Assembly (NCBI GenBank): GCA_963752255.1
Contig: CAVVXT010000002.1
Span: 1-64,000 of the forward strand
DNA: 64,000 nucleotides
Source of the DNA: Nitrososphaeria archaeon
GTDB lineage: Archaea; Thermoproteota; Nitrososphaeria; JACIWG01
Reading direction: 5' to 3'
This document shows, one piece after another, positions 22,935 to 63,224 of the stretch. Position numbers and translations under genes: made by a program. The notes beneath the pieces are model-generated. The model was given only the letters and a program-made list of their open reading frames with translations. It ran no database searches and had not been told where the DNA came from. Positions within the stretch are counted from its first letter, which is position 1, and every line of letters starts with the position of its first letter.

Positions 22935-23447
22935 CTATTCAAAGATTACAGACGCGACCTTCTTCTTTGCTTCCGCCAGAATTTCATGTATCTTGTTCAT
23001 CTTTTCTTCGTCAACGTACTCTTCATTTTGGAAGATCATCGATTGGATGTCCCTGACATCTTTCACGAAGCCGAATATGCCCATTCTTTCGGTGTACTCC
23101 TTCCCAGCCCTAATCCTTTCAACTACATCCTTCTTATCTTCAAGGTACTTCCTGCCTTCAGAAGTCAAAGAATAGATCTTCTTTCCTTCCCTTTCTTCAG
23201 AGACAATATATCCTAGATCCTCGAGCTCCTGAAGTGTAGGATAGACCAGCCCTGCGCTTACAGGTCTTTGATGTTCCCTGCCTATCTCTTGAATAAGGGC
23301 GTATCCGTGCATCGGCTTTTCTGATAGAGCCATCAAGACGAGGAAACGGAAATCGCCTCTCCTGACCCCGAACGCCCCCTTCCAGTGCATGTGTCTTCCT
23401 CCGAAACCTCTCATATCGTCTGAACATCCGTATCTGAATCCACACAT
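22935..23447 (-). CDS. PadR family regulator
   Basis: PMHGYALI, SAGLVYPTLQELED.G, KKIYSLTSEG. Confidence 0.92.
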   Translation of the reverse strand: MCGFRYGCSDDMRGFGGRHMHWKGAFGVRRGDFRFLVLMALSEKPMHGYALIQEIGREHQRPVSAGLVYPTLQELEDLGYIVSEEREGKKIYSLTSEGRKYLEDKKDVVERIRAGKEYTERMGIFGFVKDVRDIQSMIFQNEEYVDEEKMNKIHEILAEAKKKVASVIFE

Positions 23448-50197: not shown

Positions 50198-51028
50198 ATA
50201 AAACCTGTAGATAAGTTATCTATTTTTCTCATTGGTTCGCTTCTACTCTTAGCTACATTTAGTCCAGCGTTAATCCTTGCATGTTCAATAACCGCGCCGG
50301 GAATGCACGTCGCAAGCGTCAGTGGCAGTAGCTGGTATAGCACCAATTGGAGTGGATACGTAGTAAATGGCACCGCCGGTTCAGTGACTTTTGTTCAAGG
50401 TTCATGGAAGGTCCCTGCTGTTACAGGTAGGGGGAATGCATATTCGTCCTTCTGGGTAGGTATTGACGGTTTCAGCTCGAATACAGTCGAACAAATAGGA
50501 ACGGACTCCGACATCAGTAGTGGGAGGGCAGTATACTACGCTTGGTATGAATTCTATCCGAGCCCGATGTATAAAATAACCACCCTCTCAATATCTTCGG
50601 GCGACATAATCTCTGCAAGCGTGTCATACTTAGTCAGCAGTAATGCATTTACGGTTTCTATCACAGATGCTAATAAATCGACTTCTTGGACCAGTTCACC
50701 AACTGCAGTTTCAGGTGCTACGGAATCCTCGGCTGAATGGGTCGCAGAGGCTCCCTCATCAAGTAGAGGAGTTTTGCCGCTTGCAAACTTCGGTACTGTA
50801 TACTTTGGCTACGACAACACAGGGGTTTCAGGGACCTGTTATGCTACTATAAGTGGAGTTAATGGGCCAATTGGGTCCTTTCCTTCCTCCGCAATTCAAA
50901 CGATAACGATGGCTTCCCTTACATATAACCACCGAACAAACAGCTACACTGTTGTCCCCAAAGCTGTGCCATCATCATTGTCCGGTGATGGAACAAGCTT
51001 CTCGGTTACGTGGAAAAGTGCTGGTTAA
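50198..51028 (+). CDS. Secreted glutamic peptidase, family G1 (scytalidoglutamic/eqolisin type)
   Basis: STNWSGY, WVGIDG, EQIGT, AWYEFYP, SAEWVAEAP, LANFG. The in-frame signal peptide starts at ATA 50198 after GGTGA; the first ATG is 50303. Confidence 0.88.
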   Translation: MKPVDKLSIFLIGSLLLLATFSPALILACSITAPGMHVASVSGSSWYSTNWSGYVVNGTAGSVTFVQGSWKVPAVTGRGNAYSSFWVGIDGFSSNTVEQIGTDSDISSGRAVYYAWYEFYPSPMYKITTLSISSGDIISASVSYLVSSNAFTVSITDANKSTSWTSSPTAVSGATESSAEWVAEAPSSSRGVLPLANFGTVYFGYDNTGVSGTCYATISGVNGPIGSFPSSAIQTITMASLTYNHRTNSYTVVPKAVPSSLSGDGTSFSVTWKSAG

Positions 51029-51337
51029 ATGAGTTTAGCGAATCAACCCCCTATTTTTTCACGTTAACATCCTTTATTGTTTGGCCTTTGTTTCTTTAAT
51101 CCGGTTTAGAATGCATTTGTTATGTACGCTGTGTTGTTCACAGTCTTAACCACCTATTTTGCTATTGTTTCCTTTCCCGTCTACTTTGCGGAACCTGTTG
51201 TAACAGACACAGGGAGGTTGAAGTCTAATAACAGATACAGGAGAAAGGAGAAGCTGGTAGACTTCTTTTCCAGCATAATATAAACTGCCCTCCTCATAGG
51301 GACTCAGAAAGCAGAATGATTACATATTAGATAAATT

Positions 51338-51556
51338 ATGAATAATTTAGTGCATCCATTTAAGTATAAGTATGTAGAAAGTACAGACTACCAAGTCTTC
51401 TTGAAAAAAGCTATTCTAGAACAGTATAAGCTGCTTGGATCAGAGAGAGCCGAACTAATTACACAGATGGAGCTTGCTACTCTATTTGAGGCATGGATAC
51501 GATTTTTGAAACAGTTCGATGAACTCTTTCTAAAAGAACGATTTACAAGTGTGTAG
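51338..51556 (+). CDS. Hypothetical protein
   Basis: 72-aa ATG ORF only. Confidence 0.35.
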   Translation: MNNLVHPFKYKYVESTDYQVFLKKAILEQYKLLGSERAELITQMELATLFEAWIRFLKQFDELFLKERFTSV

Positions 51557-51652
51557 AAGGCTTAATTAGTTGCTTGTAAAGATACTACTAACAAAAAAAG
51601 GGGGAGGTAAAGGATTCAAGTATGTATTTCATACATGCTTAAATAAAAGGTG

Positions 51653-52144
51653 TTAGCTCCTTGACGATTTGGTTAGAACACCAGATTTCACGATAGCCAA
51701 GACTAAAAAATACCCTACAGCGTTCATTGAAATTATTGAACCCAAGAAGACTCCGAGGAACCCTACTTCAAGAGGAACTTTGAAAAGCACAGCCAAATAG
51801 GAACCGACGATGCTTGAGACTATTATGTTCTGTGCAACGGTGGCAGCGAACCTAGAACCAGCGAAGTTTTTGGAACCAATTTTCCAGCCGATATATGCAG
51901 CGAGGAAGTTTGCTATCGAACCTCCAATGATGTCGATGTAGCCTAGACCGCCATATAGGTTTGCGACGACATTCGCTAACGTCACTCCTAAGACCGCAGG
52001 CATTCCAAACACGATGGAGAGAGGAATCAAAGCGTCTGCAATTCTCACCTGGAAAAGCAGAAAGCTGATGGGAGCGAGGAGAATAACGCCTATGGCATAC
52101 AAAGCGGCGATAATGGATCCTAATGCTATCTTTCTGGTTTCCAA
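51653..52144 (-). CDS. queT: QueT family (7-deazaguanine precursor) ECF S component
   Basis: IAALY, APISF..FQVRIADAL, GVTLANVVAN, G.IDIIGGS. Confidence 0.88.
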   Translation of the reverse strand: METRKIALGSIIAALYAIGVILLAPISFLLFQVRIADALIPLSIVFGMPAVLGVTLANVVANLYGGLGYIDIIGGSIANFLAAYIGWKIGSKNFAGSRFAATVAQNIIVSSIVGSYLAVLFKVPLEVGFLGVFLGSIISMNAVGYFLVLAIVKSGVLTKSSRS

Positions 52145-52212
52145 TCTAATACCTCCCCACCGGGGTTTCTATAGCGGAACGGTGAGAAGCTCGATCACCC
52201 GCTAAATAGTGC
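52145..52212 (-). ncRNA. Structured 5' leader of queT, candidate preQ1-II-like riboswitch
   Basis: Stems UAGCG/CGCUA and GGUGA/UCACC with loop UCGAGCUUC; CCCC-GGU-GGGG hairpin overlapping SD GGAGGU; TATA at 52241-52250. Confidence 0.5.
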
Positions 52213-52263
52213 ATCTTCAGGTTTCTATTCTTCAGGCTTCTATAAATAAAGCTTTTTCCACCG

Positions 52264-52671
52264 TTAACTTATTTTCCCAAGCAAATCTACGACCTCACCC
52301 ACAGTTCTACAGATTTTGATTAGTGGAACTTCCAACATGAGATTTACATCTTCCATCCCTGAAAAGGTCCGGTGATCCGTCTTAAGCCCAACAATAGGCT
52401 TATCCAACGCCTTCGCATAACCCATTTCATACGCCACGCCAGCGTCCACTTCTACTCCGTCCAGAACTGATAATATCACGTCGCACGTCTTTAATGCCGA
52501 GATGTCACCTTCGTAGATCGCCTTCTTCTCTTTGTGAGTGCCTTGTTTAATGAAAGGAGCTTCTTGGGCAAGCCAGACCTCAAACCCGTTCTCTCTCAGT
52601 CTCTCGGCTATTTTAGAATTGAACTCTCGCTCAGCCTCGCTAAACAATGGCGCAGCAAGAAAAACTTTCAT
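52264..52671 (-). CDS. Nucleoside 2-deoxyribosyltransferase/N-glycosidase family protein
   Basis: FLAAPLFS.AE, IYEGD, DG..VDAGVAYEMGYA, NLML. Confidence 0.88.
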   Translation of the reverse strand: MKVFLAAPLFSEAEREFNSKIAERLRENGFEVWLAQEAPFIKQGTHKEKKAIYEGDISALKTCDVILSVLDGVEVDAGVAYEMGYAKALDKPIVGLKTDHRTFSGMEDVNLMLEVPLIKICRTVGEVVDLLGKIS

Positions 52672-53198
52672 TCCTGCAAATCACCTCACTCTGCATGAGC
52701 AGCAATATAAATAAATACACTCATCCATTATTACTTTGTTCCTCAAATTCCTTTGGCACTTTGCTCTAGAGCACGCGTAAGAAGTCACTATTTGCATCTT
52801 GTTGAACTATTTTACAAATGGCTTGAATAGTTTGACTTAACCTCTCTGCCCTCTTTTTCCCTTCCGGTCGTACAAAATGTGAAATTGGAACCAAAAGGAT
52901 TTGTTCCACCATCTGAGCATCTCCTCTAATCTCCAAGTATACACCGTATGTTTCTGCATCATTTTTTGTTACTTCTGCTTCAAGAATGTGCTGCCTCGGA
53001 ATTATTAGTAATTCGTCGCTAAGCCATATACCCTACAAATTTTTCACAGAATTTTCATAATAGAGAAGAGTAATAACGTAGCATGAATACGAATCTTGTC
53101 TTTTCATAACACTTGCGCGTTGAACTTCAAGATTTAACCTATTTAGAATACTATTTCTACGGTTGCATATCTTTATATGACAAAAGTGATAAAAGCAT

Positions 53199-53702
53199 TT
53201 AGGAAGGCTTTAAACGGCTTTCCATCGTAGGATGCACAACATTATATAGTGTGTATGCTATCACGGAACCTAAAAGTGCCTGCAGAATGTTCCATGGAAG
53301 TTCCGCGAGAGCTCCTCCGATGGCGAAAAAGTAGCTTTCGAAAACAAAGTAGGAGGCTATCATGAAAAATCCTCCCAGCGGGCCTGAACTATAGGCTAGA
53401 AGCTTTGACTCCTTATAGAATCTCATAAATATCAAACCCACAATAAGACCTTCAATACCCTTAGCCACGAATGTGACTGGAGCGTAGAAGGAGTACCCTG
53501 AAAGAATGTCTGCTAGAGAGGAGCCTAGGCCTCCTGTTATCAGGCCCACGTAGGGGCCGAAGAGCATGCTGACCAATATTACTCCTGCATCGCCGAAGTT
53601 GAAGTATCCTTGTGTCGCTGGAATTGGTATTTTGAATATGATCGTCATTACAGTAACTAGCGGGATCATCACACTAACGAGGGCCAGTGTCCTTACTTGC
53701 AT
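53199..53702 (-). CDS. ECF transporter S component, PdxU/HmpT-like (vitamin B6 candidate)
   Basis: IPIPATQGYFNFGD, GGLGSSLADILSGY..YAPVTFVAKG.EG, E..WNILQ. Confidence 0.8.
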   Translation of the reverse strand: MQVRTLALVSVMIPLVTVMTIIFKIPIPATQGYFNFGDAGVILVSMLFGPYVGLITGGLGSSLADILSGYSFYAPVTFVAKGIEGLIVGLIFMRFYKESKLLAYSSGPLGGFFMIASYFVFESYFFAIGGALAELPWNILQALLGSVIAYTLYNVVHPTMESRLKPS

Positions 53703-53748
53703 AGGCTAATCATCGGAAAACAAGGGAAACAAACATATATAAGTAATA

Positions 53749-53762
53749 GCCTATATATAGGC
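53749..53762. promoter_or_regulatory. Perfect 14-bp palindrome GCCTATATATAGGC in the divergent promoter
   Basis: Next to a shared TATA (53734-53743); a half site ATAGGC overlaps the ECF start codon. Confidence 0.7.
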
Positions 53763-53774
53763 CTAGTAATAAGT

Positions 53775-55196
53775 ATGACGAATGACATCTCATTAAGGTG
53801 CACAAACTGCGGTGCAAGCAGTAGCTTTGATATTAATAGAAAACTATGTGACAGATGCGGAAACGGCCTTACTATAGAAATGGAGCGTACTCATGATTTT
53901 GAACCGCAGCAAAATGCGACTGGAATATGGAAGTATGCTAAGATATTACCAAGCTTAGATGAAGGATTTCGAATTTCCTTAGGGGAAGGCAACACGAGCC
54001 TACATGAAAGCAAGAAAACCAAAGATGAGATAAAGGTTGACAGACTATTGTTTAAGGATGAAACAGTGGAGCCAACAGGATCTTATCTAGACAGAAGCTC
54101 AGCACTATTCGCATCCATAGCCCTTTGTTTAGGGTACAGAAAGGTTGTCACGTATTCTACGGGAAATCTTGGTGCCTCACTTTCGGCGTATTCTTCCAAG
54201 GCAGGATTAAGGACACTGGTCTACATCAAACCCGGCATCGACCTCGGAAAACTCTATCAGATGATAGCGTACGGAGCAGAAGTGAAGGTTGTGCAAAATT
54301 TTAAGGAAAAATGGAAAGGATTAGAGGACACGGTTGTAGCTACGGAATATGACCCACTAATAAATGAAGCCAAGAAAACAATTATGTTAGAAATCTTCTA
54401 CCAGCTTAACAGAGATTTACCGGACTACATAATACTTCCTATGGGAGAGGGAGGCCTAGTTTATTCAACCTTTAAGACATTAAGTGAGCTCAAGACACTC
54501 GGTAAGAACAAAATTTACAGGACAAAAGTTGTTGGCGTACAGCCAGAGGGCTGTGCTCCTATAGTGAAAGCGTTTGAAAAAGGGCTGGACATCGTTGAGC
54601 CTGAAGATGGCCCTAGAACCCATATATTTGACCTAAGCGTGGCAAATCCTAAATTTGGAAATGCAGCTTTGAAGGCGATAAAGGAAACTAAAGGCGTCGC
54701 TATCTCGATTGGTGGAAACGAAATAATGGATGCCACTACCGCCTTAGCTGAAAACGAAGGCATTCTTGCTGAGCCAGCTGCCAGTCTAACCGTAGCTGGG
54801 CTGATGAAACTGAGAAAGACAGGAGAAATAGGAGGTGACTCTACGGTAGTCTGCGTCATAACCGGAAGCGGCCTTAAAGACCCTAGACTAATGAAAGAGA
54901 TAGCGCTTAGAAGATCAAACTTAGGCTCCTTGATAGAAGAGTTGAGTGGGGGTATGCTGTTAGGTGATACTAAACTAGCGACTCTGAAATTACTGTCTGA
55001 AAAAGATATGTACGGTTATCAGATTTGGAAGGAACTAAGAGAAAAACATGGTGTCGGCCTAAAGATTCCTACTGTCTATCAACATTTGTCTGAGCTAATC
55101 AAGGAAGGCTATGTAAAGAAGATTGAGTCAAAGATGGTTTCAGGAAGAAAGAGAGAATACTATTCATTAACGGATAAAGGAAGAGCTCTAGCTTAA
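53775..55196 (+). CDS. Threonine-synthase-like PLP-fold domain lacking the Schiff-base Lys, fused to a PadR-type winged HTH
   Basis: Zn ribbon, SLGEGNT, PTGSYLDR (canonical PTGSFKDR), STGN, EPA, TGSGLKD; C-terminal MYGYQIWKEL..IPTVYQHL..Y.LTDKG. Confidence 0.85.
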   Translation: MTNDISLRCTNCGASSSFDINRKLCDRCGNGLTIEMERTHDFEPQQNATGIWKYAKILPSLDEGFRISLGEGNTSLHESKKTKDEIKVDRLLFKDETVEPTGSYLDRSSALFASIALCLGYRKVVTYSTGNLGASLSAYSSKAGLRTLVYIKPGIDLGKLYQMIAYGAEVKVVQNFKEKWKGLEDTVVATEYDPLINEAKKTIMLEIFYQLNRDLPDYIILPMGEGGLVYSTFKTLSELKTLGKNKIYRTKVVGVQPEGCAPIVKAFEKGLDIVEPEDGPRTHIFDLSVANPKFGNAALKAIKETKGVAISIGGNEIMDATTALAENEGILAEPAASLTVAGLMKLRKTGEIGGDSTVVCVITGSGLKDPRLMKEIALRRSNLGSLIEELSGGMLLGDTKLATLKLLSEKDMYGYQIWKELREKHGVGLKIPTVYQHLSELIKEGYVKKIESKMVSGRKREYYSLTDKGRALA

Positions 55197-55280
55197 AGAA
55201 AATGATAAAAATTAAAAATGACCCCATGTGGGGTTATCTATTTTAACATCAAGCTTCTTGTATTCTACAGTAAAAAAGAA

Positions 55281-55500
55281 AGGTATTCGCACTTAATTAT
55301 GGTCGAAAACCATTGGAACCCGCTGACAAAAAGCGTCCAGCATAAAGCCGTGGCCAGCAGAAGCGTCTCTGTATCCAATAACCTAGATGTAAAGGCTATA
55401 AAACACGTCCTCGACTTGTTGACAAAAGAACTTACAAGACAAGTTAGGTAGCTAAGCTATAAAGGCTGATGTTCTATTCTAAGATCCAACGCTCGACTAT
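55281..55500 (-). mobile_element. IS end and transposase C-terminal remnant, probably IS6-like
   Basis: Same 24-bp terminus as 49128; degenerate IVERW...; C-terminus GFQWFSTIIKCEY. Confidence 0.5.
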
Positions 55501-55563
55501 AACAAAATCATTAGTAGAGGAGGGATCAATTTCGCTAAGTCAATCTTTTGTCGGACATTGCAT

Positions 55564-56215
55564 TTAAACTATTACGATCTTGAATAGCGCCTCAAAGGTG
55601 GACATTATCTCTTTTCCGTGAACTTCCTTGTTGATCAGGAACAGCATTGGAATACCTGATGTTGCCTGTATGTCTAAGGCATGTCTAGCCATCTTATATG
55701 CTTGCTCAAAGTTCGTCAGTAAAAAGATATCTGTCAGGTTATCGAAGACCACGGCAGCTGGTTCGAAACTGTTCTTTATGGTGATGAACGTACCCAAGAT
55801 TTGTGATATATCGCTTGCTGGGACGATTGTTTCTTTTCCATTTACCTTGAGGGTCTTAGAGGAGGAAGTCGAAAGGAAAACGTAATATACTTTTTGATAT
55901 CCACTAAAATCCGTATGCAATCGGCTTCCCATTCTTGTGAAGACATAGACCGTTTGGCAATAGGCTAGGCACTCCAATACGAAGTTTCTTACCCTTTGAT
56001 GGGTAGTCGGTTGATGGCTCGAACTTTAGGAGAATGGGGGTTTTAGTGAGTTCCTTATGACTGATTCTTATTAAGGAAGAGAAGATTTTCAAGTCCTTTT
56101 CAGTGGAACCTTCAGGAAGGAAGAGTGTTCTCAATTTCCCACCTGCAATTTCGTCTACCATCTGGTTCAATATCAAGAAGTTCTCATGCTTCTTGAATAC
56201 TTCTATAACGTGAAC
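55564..56215 (-). pseudogene. 5'-truncated paralog of the 7TM-DUF835 gene (DUF835-like part), frameshift near 55990
   Basis: VVFDNLTD.FLLTNFEQAYK, FLINKEVH; collinear with the C-terminus of 56516-58207. Confidence 0.8.
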
Positions 56216-56515
56216 TTCTTTATAGCTGATATATTTAATTGCGCTATGAGCAGGCAGAGTCCACGACTTACCTGTCGCAGTCCTAGAATATCGTGAGCGT
56301 TGAAAATTTGTGCATTATGAATAGAAGACGATCTCTATAAATTATACTGAAAGTGAACTAGGTTTATGCCGGCAACCAAGCATGATCTGTGAAACCTTTA
56401 AACCTGACCATCCGAGTCTGACGTATTTCATTTCTAATCAACAGGTCTAGAGGGTTTGAGTTCTTTATAAAACTTTTCTAACCTATAAATGGCATACTTT
56501 CTTGGCCAAAACCTC

Positions 56516-58207
56516 TTACGACCGACGGTTCGCTTGGAGAACGACTTTGAAAAGGATTTCGAATGCTGAAAGTGTGTTCTTGTCATGTACATCCTTATTT
56601 ATGAGAAACATCGAATGGGTTCTGGAATTGGCGATTATATCTAAAGCGTGCCTAGTTGCTTTGTATGTTTGCTCAAAGCTGGTCAGAAGAAGGACATCTG
56701 TAAGGCTGTCAAAAATTACTGCTGAAGTTTCATCGCTATTTTTTATTGTAATCAGTAAACCTAGCATCTGTGATAAGTCACTTACAGGAACGATTCTCTT
56801 TCCTTCACTCTCTTTTAAAATCTTCGAAGTTGATGGGGAAAGGAAAAGAAAGTCGATTCCAGCGACATCCTTTATATCCAAATACAAATTGCTTTCCTTT
56901 CTCGTAAACACATACACCTTTTCACCATTGGCTATGCATTCCATCACAAAATCCTTTACTCTTCCAGGGTAATTACTTCTAGCGGAGAACATTAGAAGAA
57001 TCTGCGATTCTTTAACATCCTCGTGAGTCATTTTCTCTCCGATTGAGAATCTTTCCATATCCTTCTCTGTGTATCCTGCTGGAACAAAGAGCAATTTTAG
57101 CTTTCCTTCTGAAGCCTTGGAAAGTATTTGTTTTTCTTTGAGATAGTTTTCATGTTTTTTGAGGGCCTCTATCAGGTCACCGCCCAAAAGGTCGAAAGTT
57201 TGGTCTATGAAACTAACTAAGCTTTCACTAAACTTAGGATCAAGTTCTCCATTCTCAAGGAGAGTCAAAGAAACGTCTATTAGGCAAGTTACATTTTTCG
57301 CTTCGATGGCCCCACCTTTTATGCCAATGTTTAATAAAAGTTTATCATTATCAAAACTTATTTTCTCATCAAGTCCGCACGTCTTCAAATAGGATAGCAG
57401 CTTGAAATATTTGCTTCCGAGTGCGTCCATAGGAGCTGTCATATTGCTGTAAAAGGCTTCAACAAGTTTAGCTACCTTGGGGGATATTTTGGTGTAGCCG
57501 ATTGGTATCAACGCAAATTCTTGTTCAGGTGGGGTGAATATTGCATAAGAAACTGTTGCGAAAGTTGCTAAGTTAAGAAACCCTCCCAAAGGAGGGAAGT
57601 TAGGATTAATTTGTATGAGATAAACATTCGTTATCGTTATACCTACTGCTTGGAATGCTATGAAAGCCAATAATATATACAGAAATTTTGTTTTAAGGCT
57701 TCTACTTGGAGCCTTCACCAATAGGTATATCAATATTAATATCATAATCCCCATATAAATAGGTGTACCAAGCAAAATTACCTCATAAGTGTTCAATTGA
57801 ACAATTGAGGAATAGCTCCACCCGAACACTCCCAAATGCATTTGATACTTTGTCAGAAATATGGAAATTAGACTGCCTGTAATACTTGGAAGGAGACACA
57901 GAATATTAAATATTCTGAACTTCCAAACATTAAGAAATGTCAAGAAATAGAAGCCAATTGTAAAAGGATAAACAATTCCAATGATACCAAATATTGCCAT
58001 TGCATCCATTGGTGTTTGAGCAGTTCGATTAAAGAAGACTAAAACTTCCCAACATGAAACAATTATTCCAAATAGAGATAGTGAAATCGTCACTGGATTA
58101 GCCTTGAACTTGTATAATAAAAAAAGGCTAGCTGCCGATGTAGCAATAGCGCATCCAATATACTGGATAGAGAGAAAAAGTAGAGAATAAAACGATAATT
58201 CAATCAT
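56516..58207 (-). CDS. Membrane sensor: N-terminal 7TM (HisKA_7TM-like) domain plus C-terminal inactive KaiC-like (DUF835-type) domain
   Basis: About seven hydrophobic helices in the first 225 aa; C-terminal VIFDSLTD, no Walker A, FLINKDVHD...FEILF. Confidence 0.75.
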   Translation of the reverse strand: MIELSFYSLLFLSIQYIGCAIATSAASLFLLYKFKANPVTISLSLFGIIVSCWEVLVFFNRTAQTPMDAMAIFGIIGIVYPFTIGFYFLTFLNVWKFRIFNILCLLPSITGSLISIFLTKYQMHLGVFGWSYSSIVQLNTYEVILLGTPIYMGIMILILIYLLVKAPSRSLKTKFLYILLAFIAFQAVGITITNVYLIQINPNFPPLGGFLNLATFATVSYAIFTPPEQEFALIPIGYTKISPKVAKLVEAFYSNMTAPMDALGSKYFKLLSYLKTCGLDEKISFDNDKLLLNIGIKGGAIEAKNVTCLIDVSLTLLENGELDPKFSESLVSFIDQTFDLLGGDLIEALKKHENYLKEKQILSKASEGKLKLLFVPAGYTEKDMERFSIGEKMTHEDVKESQILLMFSARSNYPGRVKDFVMECIANGEKVYVFTRKESNLYLDIKDVAGIDFLFLSPSTSKILKESEGKRIVPVSDLSQMLGLLITIKNSDETSAVIFDSLTDVLLLTSFEQTYKATRHALDIIANSRTHSMFLINKDVHDKNTLSAFEILFKVVLQANRRS

Positions 58208-62840: not shown

Positions 62841-63224
62841 AGGAGAAGGAGGTATTCCAAGAATAGCTGCCCCTTTTGAAGCCTTAATCGTTTAGGAATG
62901 CTATTTGGTACTCTCCACCCAGTTCCAGCATCAGCATTTTAGCTTACGTTTTCCGGATTCCATCTCTTGACTCTATACACGGACAGAAGGTTGCTTAGAG
63001 ATTAACTTTAGCGTACGGTGTACTAGTTAATTCAACTTTTACATATAGTGTACTAATTACTTAAAGATCAAAGGCCATAGTACGTCAAACCGCAAAAATA
63101 GTTTTACTATTTAATATAGGAACGTGCTTGTTCTCCTATAATGTGCTGGGCATTCCTTAGGAAAACAGGCTTCTACCTGTATATATATAGGAATAAAAAA
63201 ATTGCCAGATCAGAACTATACTTT

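Follow-up and report, generated by a model that had tools for sequence, protein, structure and literature searches.

The archaeal thiamine regulator ThiR joins an enzyme to a winged helix-turn-helix (wHTH) domain and controls genes of biosynthesis and transport. Of like design is the riboflavin regulator RbkR, an archaeal protein in which a pathway-related enzyme domain is fused to a wHTH and which controls both biosynthesis and transport genes (PMC5397151). In Bacteria, vitamin B6 is the province of PdxR, in which a sensor resembling a pyridoxal 5'-phosphate (PLP) enzyme is fused to a winged helix; its reconstructed regulon consists of pdxST, pdxK and pdxU, covers B6 salvage as well as transport by PdxU and is often read from a divergent promoter, and MocR regulators are stated to be absent from Archaea (PMC5320631). 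Here we describe a locus in a 64,000-nucleotide stretch of a Nitrososphaeria archaeon genome (assembly GCA_963752255.1, contig CAVVXT010000002.1, positions 1 to 64,000; 'the window' below). It comprises two divergent genes and the 72-bp spacer between them (53703-53774): a putative B6-responsive regulator of 473 amino acids (53775..55196, plus strand), in which a threonine synthase (ThrC) fold lacking its PLP lysine is fused to a PadR-type wHTH, and the S component of an energy-coupling factor (ECF) transporter (53199..53702, minus strand). We propose, with a probability of about 0.7, that the fusion arose from a threonine synthase now catalytically dead and acts as a B6-responsive, autoregulated repressor, in function an analogue of the bacterial PdxR. 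Four observations carry this proposal: the domain make-up of the protein, a family-wide residue pattern, a conserved gene neighbourhood and a conserved cis element. The loss of the lysine, the neighbourhood and the palindrome in the spacer all recur in homologues from other phyla, which suggests more than chance.

The window protein and PdxR are analogous, not homologous. PdxR joins a GntR wHTH at its N terminus to a fold-type-I aminotransferase domain, whereas the window protein pairs a fold-type-II ThrC domain, without the PLP lysine, with a PadR wHTH at its C terminus; neither a GntR wHTH nor a fold-type-I aminotransferase-like domain was found in it, Pfam giving PF00291 and PF03551. RbkR and ThiR differ in other ways, with other folds and other vitamins, and RbkR is still enzymatically active. 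In the window regulator, by contrast, threonine synthesis, an unrelated pathway, supplied the enzyme domain, which would have been recruited for its cofactor site, with catalysis lost. Classical PadR proteins are small (about 110-180 amino acids), dimerise through a C-terminal helix and bind phenolic compounds or drugs. The window protein shares with them a wHTH over the Pfam cut-off and an inverted repeat as candidate operator, but its PadR domain is the C-terminal module of a 473-residue protein with an enzyme-derived sensor.

The regulator frame opens with the ATG at 53775, a start common to an identical 473-residue database protein and to the aligned orthologues; the mechanical list of open reading frames (ORFs) begins it at a TTG at 53697. 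At the N terminus lies a zinc ribbon of the CxxC...CxxC type (C9, C12, C25 and C28; 53799..53858) whose cysteine columns are nearly invariant in alignments. Cys pairs also occur here in the genuine ThrC of this genome, and the ribbon is common to the ThrC subfamily from which the regulator derives. Residues 67-364 (53973..54866) match the PLP-enzyme family PF00291 (E = 6.7e-56) and form the proposed ligand-sensing pseudoenzyme domain, supported by Foldseek and by alignment with the ThrC structure 1UIM. Residues 404-471 (54984..55187) match PadR family PF03551 (E = 3.6e-14; 52.9 bits against a cut-off of 27), so that the PadR-like domain named in the initial annotation stands. An AlphaFold2 model of the whole protein has a mean predicted local distance difference test score (pLDDT) of 86.4, with a low-confidence linker at about residues 372-397; its PadR region folds into three helices followed by a beta hairpin (pLDDT 84-94 across residues 401-470), and the PDB PadR protein 5dym matches profile positions 401-481. 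In Foldseek the best matches of the model were the threonine synthases 6nmx, 6cgq, 2zsj and 1uim (E values from 1e-22 to 4e-26, TM-scores of 0.82-0.85 on the target, 30-36% identity).

Fold, identity to solved ThrCs, zinc ribbon and the residues that anchor the PLP ring and phosphate thus tie the regulator to the ThrC families TIGR00260, NF006050 and NF004170 (PRK05638). It differs from them in lacking the Schiff-base lysine and the O-phosphohomoserine phosphate site, in carrying the extra PadR domain and in scoring below every NCBIfam ThrC cut-off (TIGR00260, 134.7 versus 167.1; NF004170, 252.5 versus 421; NF006050, 224.6 versus 303). A second, genuine ThrC with the lysine is encoded on contig C12 of the same genome (TIGR00260, 180.6 versus 167.1), so that the regulator would be redundant as a threonine synthase, a point that we count in favour of the proposal. 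On the lysine, the substrate site and the family cut-offs, which define a threonine synthase, the regulator fails to qualify as one.

The position of the Schiff-base lysine is occupied by Leu105 (codon CTA, 54087..54089, plus strand), which aligns to the lysine of the genuine ThrC in this genome and to K61 of 1UIM. The motif reads PTGSYLDR, against NPSGSFKDN in the same column of the genuine enzyme, and CTA lies two changes away from AAA, as the initial annotation had noted; the STGN, PMGEGG and TGSGLKD motifs that it listed as retained are all present. Its expectation that orthologues would share the loss was borne out in two collections. A word-index database search scored 8,000 candidates, 880 of which had E values of at most 1e-3. 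Both Pfam domains were found in all of the best 120 of these 880, and among the 112 that were readable at the lysine position none had a lysine (L 69, I 28, M 6, F 5, T 2, V 1, S 1). The other eight comprised five N-terminal truncations and three sequences outside the search pattern, two of which (P0091 and P0110) read NPTASFVDR in the alignment.

The second collection came from a genome scan with one genome per species, which gave at least 600 stretches; the best 80 of at least 591 confirmed relatives were kept. An ORF was called in 78 of the 80 loci (not in L024 or L041); two more, L021 and L047, were set aside as spurious frames, leaving 62 PadR-fused loci and 14 plain, unfused ThrCs. In the 63 fused proteins, window included, the lysine column holds R in 24, L in 16, I in 11, M in 5, F, V, N and S in one each, and gaps in three truncated genes, so that 60 rows are readable. 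Lysine was kept in none of these 60 and in 14 of 14 plain ThrCs, which marks its loss as a family trait and not a lesion.

The rest of the active site has been remodelled selectively. Residue numbers follow the alignment with Thermus thermophilus ThrC (1UIM; K61, S84-T85-G86-N87-T88, N154, S155, R160, G187-N191 and T317). The alignment served to check this numbering; the pocket roles follow published T. thermophilus structures. T88, N154, S155, R160 and N188, which we take to be the residues that bind the phosphate of O-phosphohomoserine, correspond to L132, T190, E191, I196 and E225 in the window regulator. Across the fused family, the T88 position is L or F in 60 of 60 proteins, no R is left at the R160 position, which holds I, F, L, V, A, T, S or G instead, and the N154 and S155 positions are mostly substituted. 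By contrast, 60 of 60 rows retain G86 and N87, G187 is present in 63 of 63 rows and T317 in all but one of the 63, and the glycine-rich loop is retained as G-x-G-G. The substrate-phosphate site and the catalytic base therefore appear to be gone from a family that keeps its PLP ring and phosphate anchors, a pattern that fits PLP bound as a ligand without turnover of O-phosphohomoserine.

In a quick IQ-TREE tree of the ThrC domains (75 rows; the spurious L021 and L047 and the overly short L058, L059 and L076 left out), one branch split 60 fused rows from 15 plain rows with SH-aLRT support of 98, which points to a single origin of the fusion. The fused rows fall into clade A (33 rows, window included), with a hydrophobic residue at the lysine position, and clade B (27 rows), mostly with an arginine.

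The genes beside the regulator recur as well. Adjacency was scored by tblastn with the window S component and the PdxS of locus L004 as queries, an S component being counted when within 500 bp; the count is slightly low, as L025, L080 and L011 have the S gene outside this distance rule. Homologues of the S component adjoin the regulator in 36 of the 62 fused loci; in clade A they lie upstream and are divergent from it, and in clade B they follow it in the same direction. In six others (L004, L030, L044, L045, L066 and L078) pdxS stands divergently upstream, followed by pdxT in five of the six, where the sequence reached. The association with B6 genes expected from the initial annotation was thus recovered: one neighbour or the other is present at 42 of 62 fused loci, at 41 of the 52 with at least 800 bp on both flanks and at none of the 14 plain ThrC loci. 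Each neighbour type is represented in the two main clades and spread over several phyla, and the pdxS pairing appears in three separate lineages spanning the two clades (Brockarchaeota-like, Bathyarchaeota and Heimdallarchaeota). L004, the closest of the best 80 relatives (65% identity), carries pdxS-pdxT where the window has its S component, and L061 has an EcfT gene and an ABC ATPase gene downstream as well.

In a sample of the phylum, the fused regulator and PdxS seldom occur together. We sampled 121 genomes and scored the fusion as a PadR-domain hit inside a long open frame, which occurred in 40 (39 frames of at least 430 amino acids and one cut by a contig end). PdxS was found in 6 of these 40 genomes versus 46 of the 81 others, a contrast that, the genomes being related, is descriptive and not a test. 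In three of the six (G061, G085 and G123) PdxS adjoins the regulator divergently, about 1.3 kb away on the other strand, and the families in which PdxS is universal (16 of 16 genomes in f2, 5 of 5 in f19) or nearly so (9 of 10 in f11) have no fused regulator. Five other genomes with the regulator next to an S component, a closed chromosome among them, were also searched for PdxS, and it was found in none. In the source genome (94.67% complete), PdxS and PdxJ had no match, and PdxT and the PF08543 kinases had none over cut-off. The organism appears to be a B6 auxotroph and would therefore depend on the uptake system to which the S component belongs.

This S component (167 amino acids) matches PF07155 at 120.8 bits (E = 7.9e-35; cut-off 26.7), the Pfam family that also holds PdxU and PdxU2/HmpT (PMC9997740). 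Its sole PDB match at E values up to 10 is 4hzu_S (E = 2.6e-15, residues 7-158), which agrees with the resemblance to PdxU/HmpT given in the initial annotation. The 4hzu_S chain, from L. brevis, was first named HmpT, a hydroxymethylpyrimidine (HMP) transporter, and later PdxU2, with pyridoxamine proposed as substrate from mass spectrometry and simulations (PMC4860826). Of the HmpT pocket residues E41, H84, Q87, Y120, N140 and Q143 (PMC4860826), the window protein has D38, K81, E84, Y118, N138 and Q141 at the aligned positions: three identical, one conservative and two changed (H84 to K and Q87 to E). It differs from PdxU, PdxU2 and HmpT as an archaeal subfamily under all NCBIfam cut-offs, with H84 and Q87 of HmpT replaced. 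From its context, we propose that this protein takes up a B6 vitamer and is a regulated target of the neighbouring gene product. Of the energising module, EcfT was searched for in the source genome and found at C19:565520-566113 (PF02361, 99.9 bits).

The source genome encodes the S component twice: the other copy, 78% identical to that of the window, lies downstream of SPFH/NfeD genes (G000:C5:29087-29581; L003:5088-5582, minus strand). Just downstream of the window S component, a QueT-family S component (PF06177) stands beside a nucleoside 2-deoxyribosyltransferase-like gene (PF05014; 51653-52671, minus strand), which may be a small salvage and uptake neighbourhood.

The spacer holds the cis element. 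As the initial annotation had stated, it contains a perfect palindrome, GCCTATATATAGGC (53749..53762; core CCTATATATAGG, 53750-53761), which ends 12 nt before the regulator ATG and which we propose as the operator. The 12-mer CCTATATATAGG has one site in the 2.1-Mb source genome versus 0.22 expected from base composition, and sites with one mismatch occur there at chance level (7 versus about 7.5 expected). In five of five other genomes scanned, CCTAYATATAGG likewise occurs once per genome, at the regulator gene. For a wider count, we took the 110 nt before the conserved Cys9 codon at 60 evaluable fused loci, with the other ORFs in the same loci as controls. The palindrome was found with at most two mismatches at 21 of the 60 (5 exact, 10 with one mismatch and 6 with two) versus 1 of 558 control upstream regions. 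All 21 loci belong to clade A, although one match, in L008, is in fact to the TATA-like box itself. The element is conserved and tied to the promoter of the regulator gene. The suggestion in the initial annotation that the palindrome might also mark other B6 genes fared differently; in the six genomes scanned, the exact motif had no site beyond the regulator's own promoter.

A TATA-like box, ATATATAAG (53735..53743), ends exactly 6 nt before the palindrome core and lies about 32-40 nt before the regulator ATG. A box of this type stands exactly 6 nt ahead of the palindrome in 20 of 27 loci (at most three mismatches, window included), and this fixed spacing across phyla argues for a steric relation between a bound PadR dimer and the box. 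Archaeal promoters have a TATA element centred about 26 nt before the start site, and many archaeal mRNAs are leaderless. The S-component ATG (complement) is at 53702, 32 nt left of the box; since the box is close to both starts (about 31-32 nt from that of the S component), it is probably a TATA element shared by the two divergent genes, judging from its position and from general knowledge of archaeal promoters. On the general archaeal layout, the palindrome would then cover roughly -16 to -4 of the regulator promoter and would lie just upstream of the TATA box and B recognition element of the leftward one. An Rfam scan of window positions 51000-56500 (E of at most 0.1) gave zero matches.

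The palindrome could instead be an AT-rich element of the promoter that serves as a second TATA box or as a bidirectional one, with the regulator binding elsewhere or controlling other genes. Its core is TATATATA, it sits within the 72-bp bidirectional promoter region, and the clade B homologues do without it. We nevertheless consider this unlikely. A GC-clamped 12-mer present once per genome in six of six genomes, each time at the regulator gene, and enriched at the homologues over other genes of the same loci is hard to square with a general promoter element; in many loci a mere 1-12 nt part it from the start codon, too few for it to be the regulator's TATA box, and a separate TATA-like box stands at a fixed distance upstream of it.

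In clade B, inspection by eye of the upstream regions found only AT-rich TTAA-type stretches, and we claim no motif; an operator there, if any, would differ from the CCTATATATAGG element. Clade B loci such as L020, L022, L026 and L028 carry operons of regulator, S component and AIR-synthase-family gene without that element. Separately, a promoter-like repeat was met among the near-matches to the palindrome: a T-rich run, a box of the type (T/C)CTATATATAG(G/A) and a conserved flank ending ...cctaagg, with sites at window position 63180 and at G000:C19:187450, 416138 and 598142.

For a B6-responsive repressor, these elements suggest the following course. The ThrC-fold domain would most likely hold PLP or another phosphorylated B6 vitamer non-covalently as its signal, since the anchors for ring and phosphate remain. 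The palindrome CCTATATATAGG would be occupied by the PadR winged helix at the C terminus, probably as a dimer; sequence-specific binding is proposed here from the conservation of the palindrome at the promoter. With the operator occupied 6 bp from the box, TBP, TFB and RNA polymerase would be excluded from the compact bidirectional promoter, so that the B6-loaded form would most likely repress its own gene and, probably, the divergent B6 uptake gene. In B6 shortage the protein would leave the DNA, and the S component and more regulator would be made; in prototrophic relatives, release would yield PdxST in place of the S component.

The derivation of the sensor from threonine synthase allows a different ligand, namely a (phospho-)amino acid of the threonine/methionine branch (O-phosphohomoserine, threonine or homoserine), perhaps as a PLP adduct as in GabR, with amino-acid genes regulated and the B6 neighbours incidental. 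MocR regulators such as GabR take PLP and an amino compound as effector (PMC5320631), and S84 and N87 of the carboxylate/O3' region are largely retained. The family-wide replacement of the T88, N154, S155, R160 and N188 positions, which would hold the substrate phosphate, speaks against such a ligand, as does the neighbourhood: no threonine, methionine or homoserine gene was found among 196 neighbour ORFs scanned, whereas pdxS, pdxT and the S component recur. On balance we regard an amino-acid sensor as quite improbable.

A gene of the AIR-synthase/PurM superfamily (about 340 amino acids; for example L020:8248-9261 and L034:4047-5042) follows the S gene in 24 of the 62 fused loci. Together with the first name of 4hzu_S, a hydroxymethylpyrimidine transporter (PMC4860826), this PurM/ThiL-superfamily gene would suit a thiamine/HMP salvage system, in which the S component imports HMP and the neighbour is a ThiL-like kinase. 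The neighbour, however, falls far under the ThiL cut-off of 184 bits (74-99 bits in four neighbour proteins and 79 in the orthologue of the source genome, which has a separate locus, G000:C19:115196-116186, L084:5197-6186), and under the NCBIfam cut-offs for HypE and SelD as well. A true ThiL (201.7 bits) and a true HypE (372.8 bits) are encoded separately in the source genome. The closest solved relatives of the neighbour are HypE proteins (E = 1e-19). In addition, six loci pair the regulator with pdxS/pdxT and not with thi genes, the sensor fold is a PLP fold, and the absence of PdxS tracks adjacency to the S component. Thiamine salvage therefore strikes us as very unlikely, and we regard the AIR-synthase-family neighbour as a candidate kinase for an imported B6 vitamer. 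The absence of PF08543 (PdxK/ThiD) was considered as support for such a new kinase and set aside; the family is under cut-off in the source genome and in two of the five others but present in the remaining three, in open frames of 450-481 amino acids. That the fusion is still an enzyme, a bifunctional protein with a non-canonical lysine-free mechanism on the model of archaeal RbkR, a working kinase fused to a wHTH (PMC5397151), is the least probable reading of all: fold and PLP anchors are intact, but the lysine has given way in every readable member to chemically diverse residues (R, L, I, M, F, V, N and S), the substrate phosphate pocket is lost too, the scores lie under every ThrC cut-off, and the genome has its genuine ThrC.

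Several points weigh against the proposal of a B6-responsive repressor. What the protein binds, its contact with DNA and its dimeric state are inferences, as are the mapping of the promoters and the sign of regulation. On the side of the transporter, only three of the six HmpT pocket residues are identical in the S component, which lies below every NCBIfam S-component cut-off (best TIGR04002, 38 bits versus 120); the substrate of its subfamily is deduced, and the pyridoxamine assignment of HmpT itself comes from mass spectrometry and simulations. No CCTATATATAGG-like operator was seen near the second S-component copy on C5. The palindrome, at up to two mismatches, is found at none of the Arg-bearing clade B loci, and no second site of the exact motif and hence no wider regulon emerged in any of the six genomes scanned, which leaves promoter geometry as the one argument for control of the divergent gene. 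Neither an S component nor pdxS adjoins the regulator in 20 of the 62 fused loci, some of them at contig ends; among the 20 are the close relatives L005 and L006, whose flanks are complete. The phyletic counts, finally, come from related, non-independent genomes.

The Brockarchaeota locus L005 (4742-7392) keeps the regulator and the downstream synteny (deoxyhypusine synthase and GH94), with a GH18 gene in place of the pdxS of L004 and L045 and a palindrome degraded by two mismatches. Genes for HAD-family hydrolases lie just downstream of the regulator at several Nitrososphaerota and Bathyarchaeota loci (L036:7443-8153, L039:7419-8072 and L030:9410-10156). PLP phosphatases are members of the HAD superfamily, and a relation of these genes to B6 is only a hint. 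Elsewhere in the window, a DUF835-like C-terminal region is common to the ORFs at 55564-55977 and 56516-58207 (both minus strand); the first, of 137 amino acids, resembles the truncated end of the second, a 563-residue membrane protein.

The NCBIfam model NF004170 (PRK05638, 'threonine synthase') matches window positions 53793-55190 and includes the PadR part within the model; stand-alone PadR genes (window 23139-23360 and C19:361777-361998) match its positions 369-439. Because the model covers the PadR part, Lys-less regulators that reach its cut-off would be named threonine synthase, and several database homologues of the window regulator do bear that name from their sources.

A broader claim is that the Lys-less ThrC-PadR family is the master B6 regulator of Archaea (TACK, Asgard and some Methanobacteriota), a non-homologous counterpart of PdxR in which a dead fold-type-II enzyme serves as a non-covalent PLP sensor, and that it comes with a new B6 salvage module: a PdxU2-like S component and a PurM/HypE-superfamily protein, an AIR-synthase-family ATP-dependent enzyme that replaces the pyridoxal kinase PdxK. 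We offer this only tentatively, at well under even odds.

Enzyme-derived vitamin sensors fused to a wHTH are a known design, and the ThrC-PadR version for B6 appears to be new. We found no description of a ThrC-PadR fusion or of an archaeal B6 regulator in the open full-text literature, a scope that leaves most subscription journals outside, so that a prior description is possible. In a 2023 survey, the transport of B6 is named as a gap, as are possible unknown kinases (PMC9997740). If the proposal is right, it would close the gap in B6 regulation across much of the archaeal tree (Bathyarchaeia, Nitrososphaerota, Brockarchaeota and the Heimdall- and Odinarchaeota among others), and would lead on to a B6 transporter of Archaea and a candidate new kinase for B6. 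It would also correct the 'threonine synthase' annotations of the Lys-less regulators and provide a clean case of a PLP enzyme turned cofactor sensor through loss of its catalytic lysine. For uncultured archaea, the fusion would then be a genomic marker of B6 auxotrophy, useful in the design of cultivation media.

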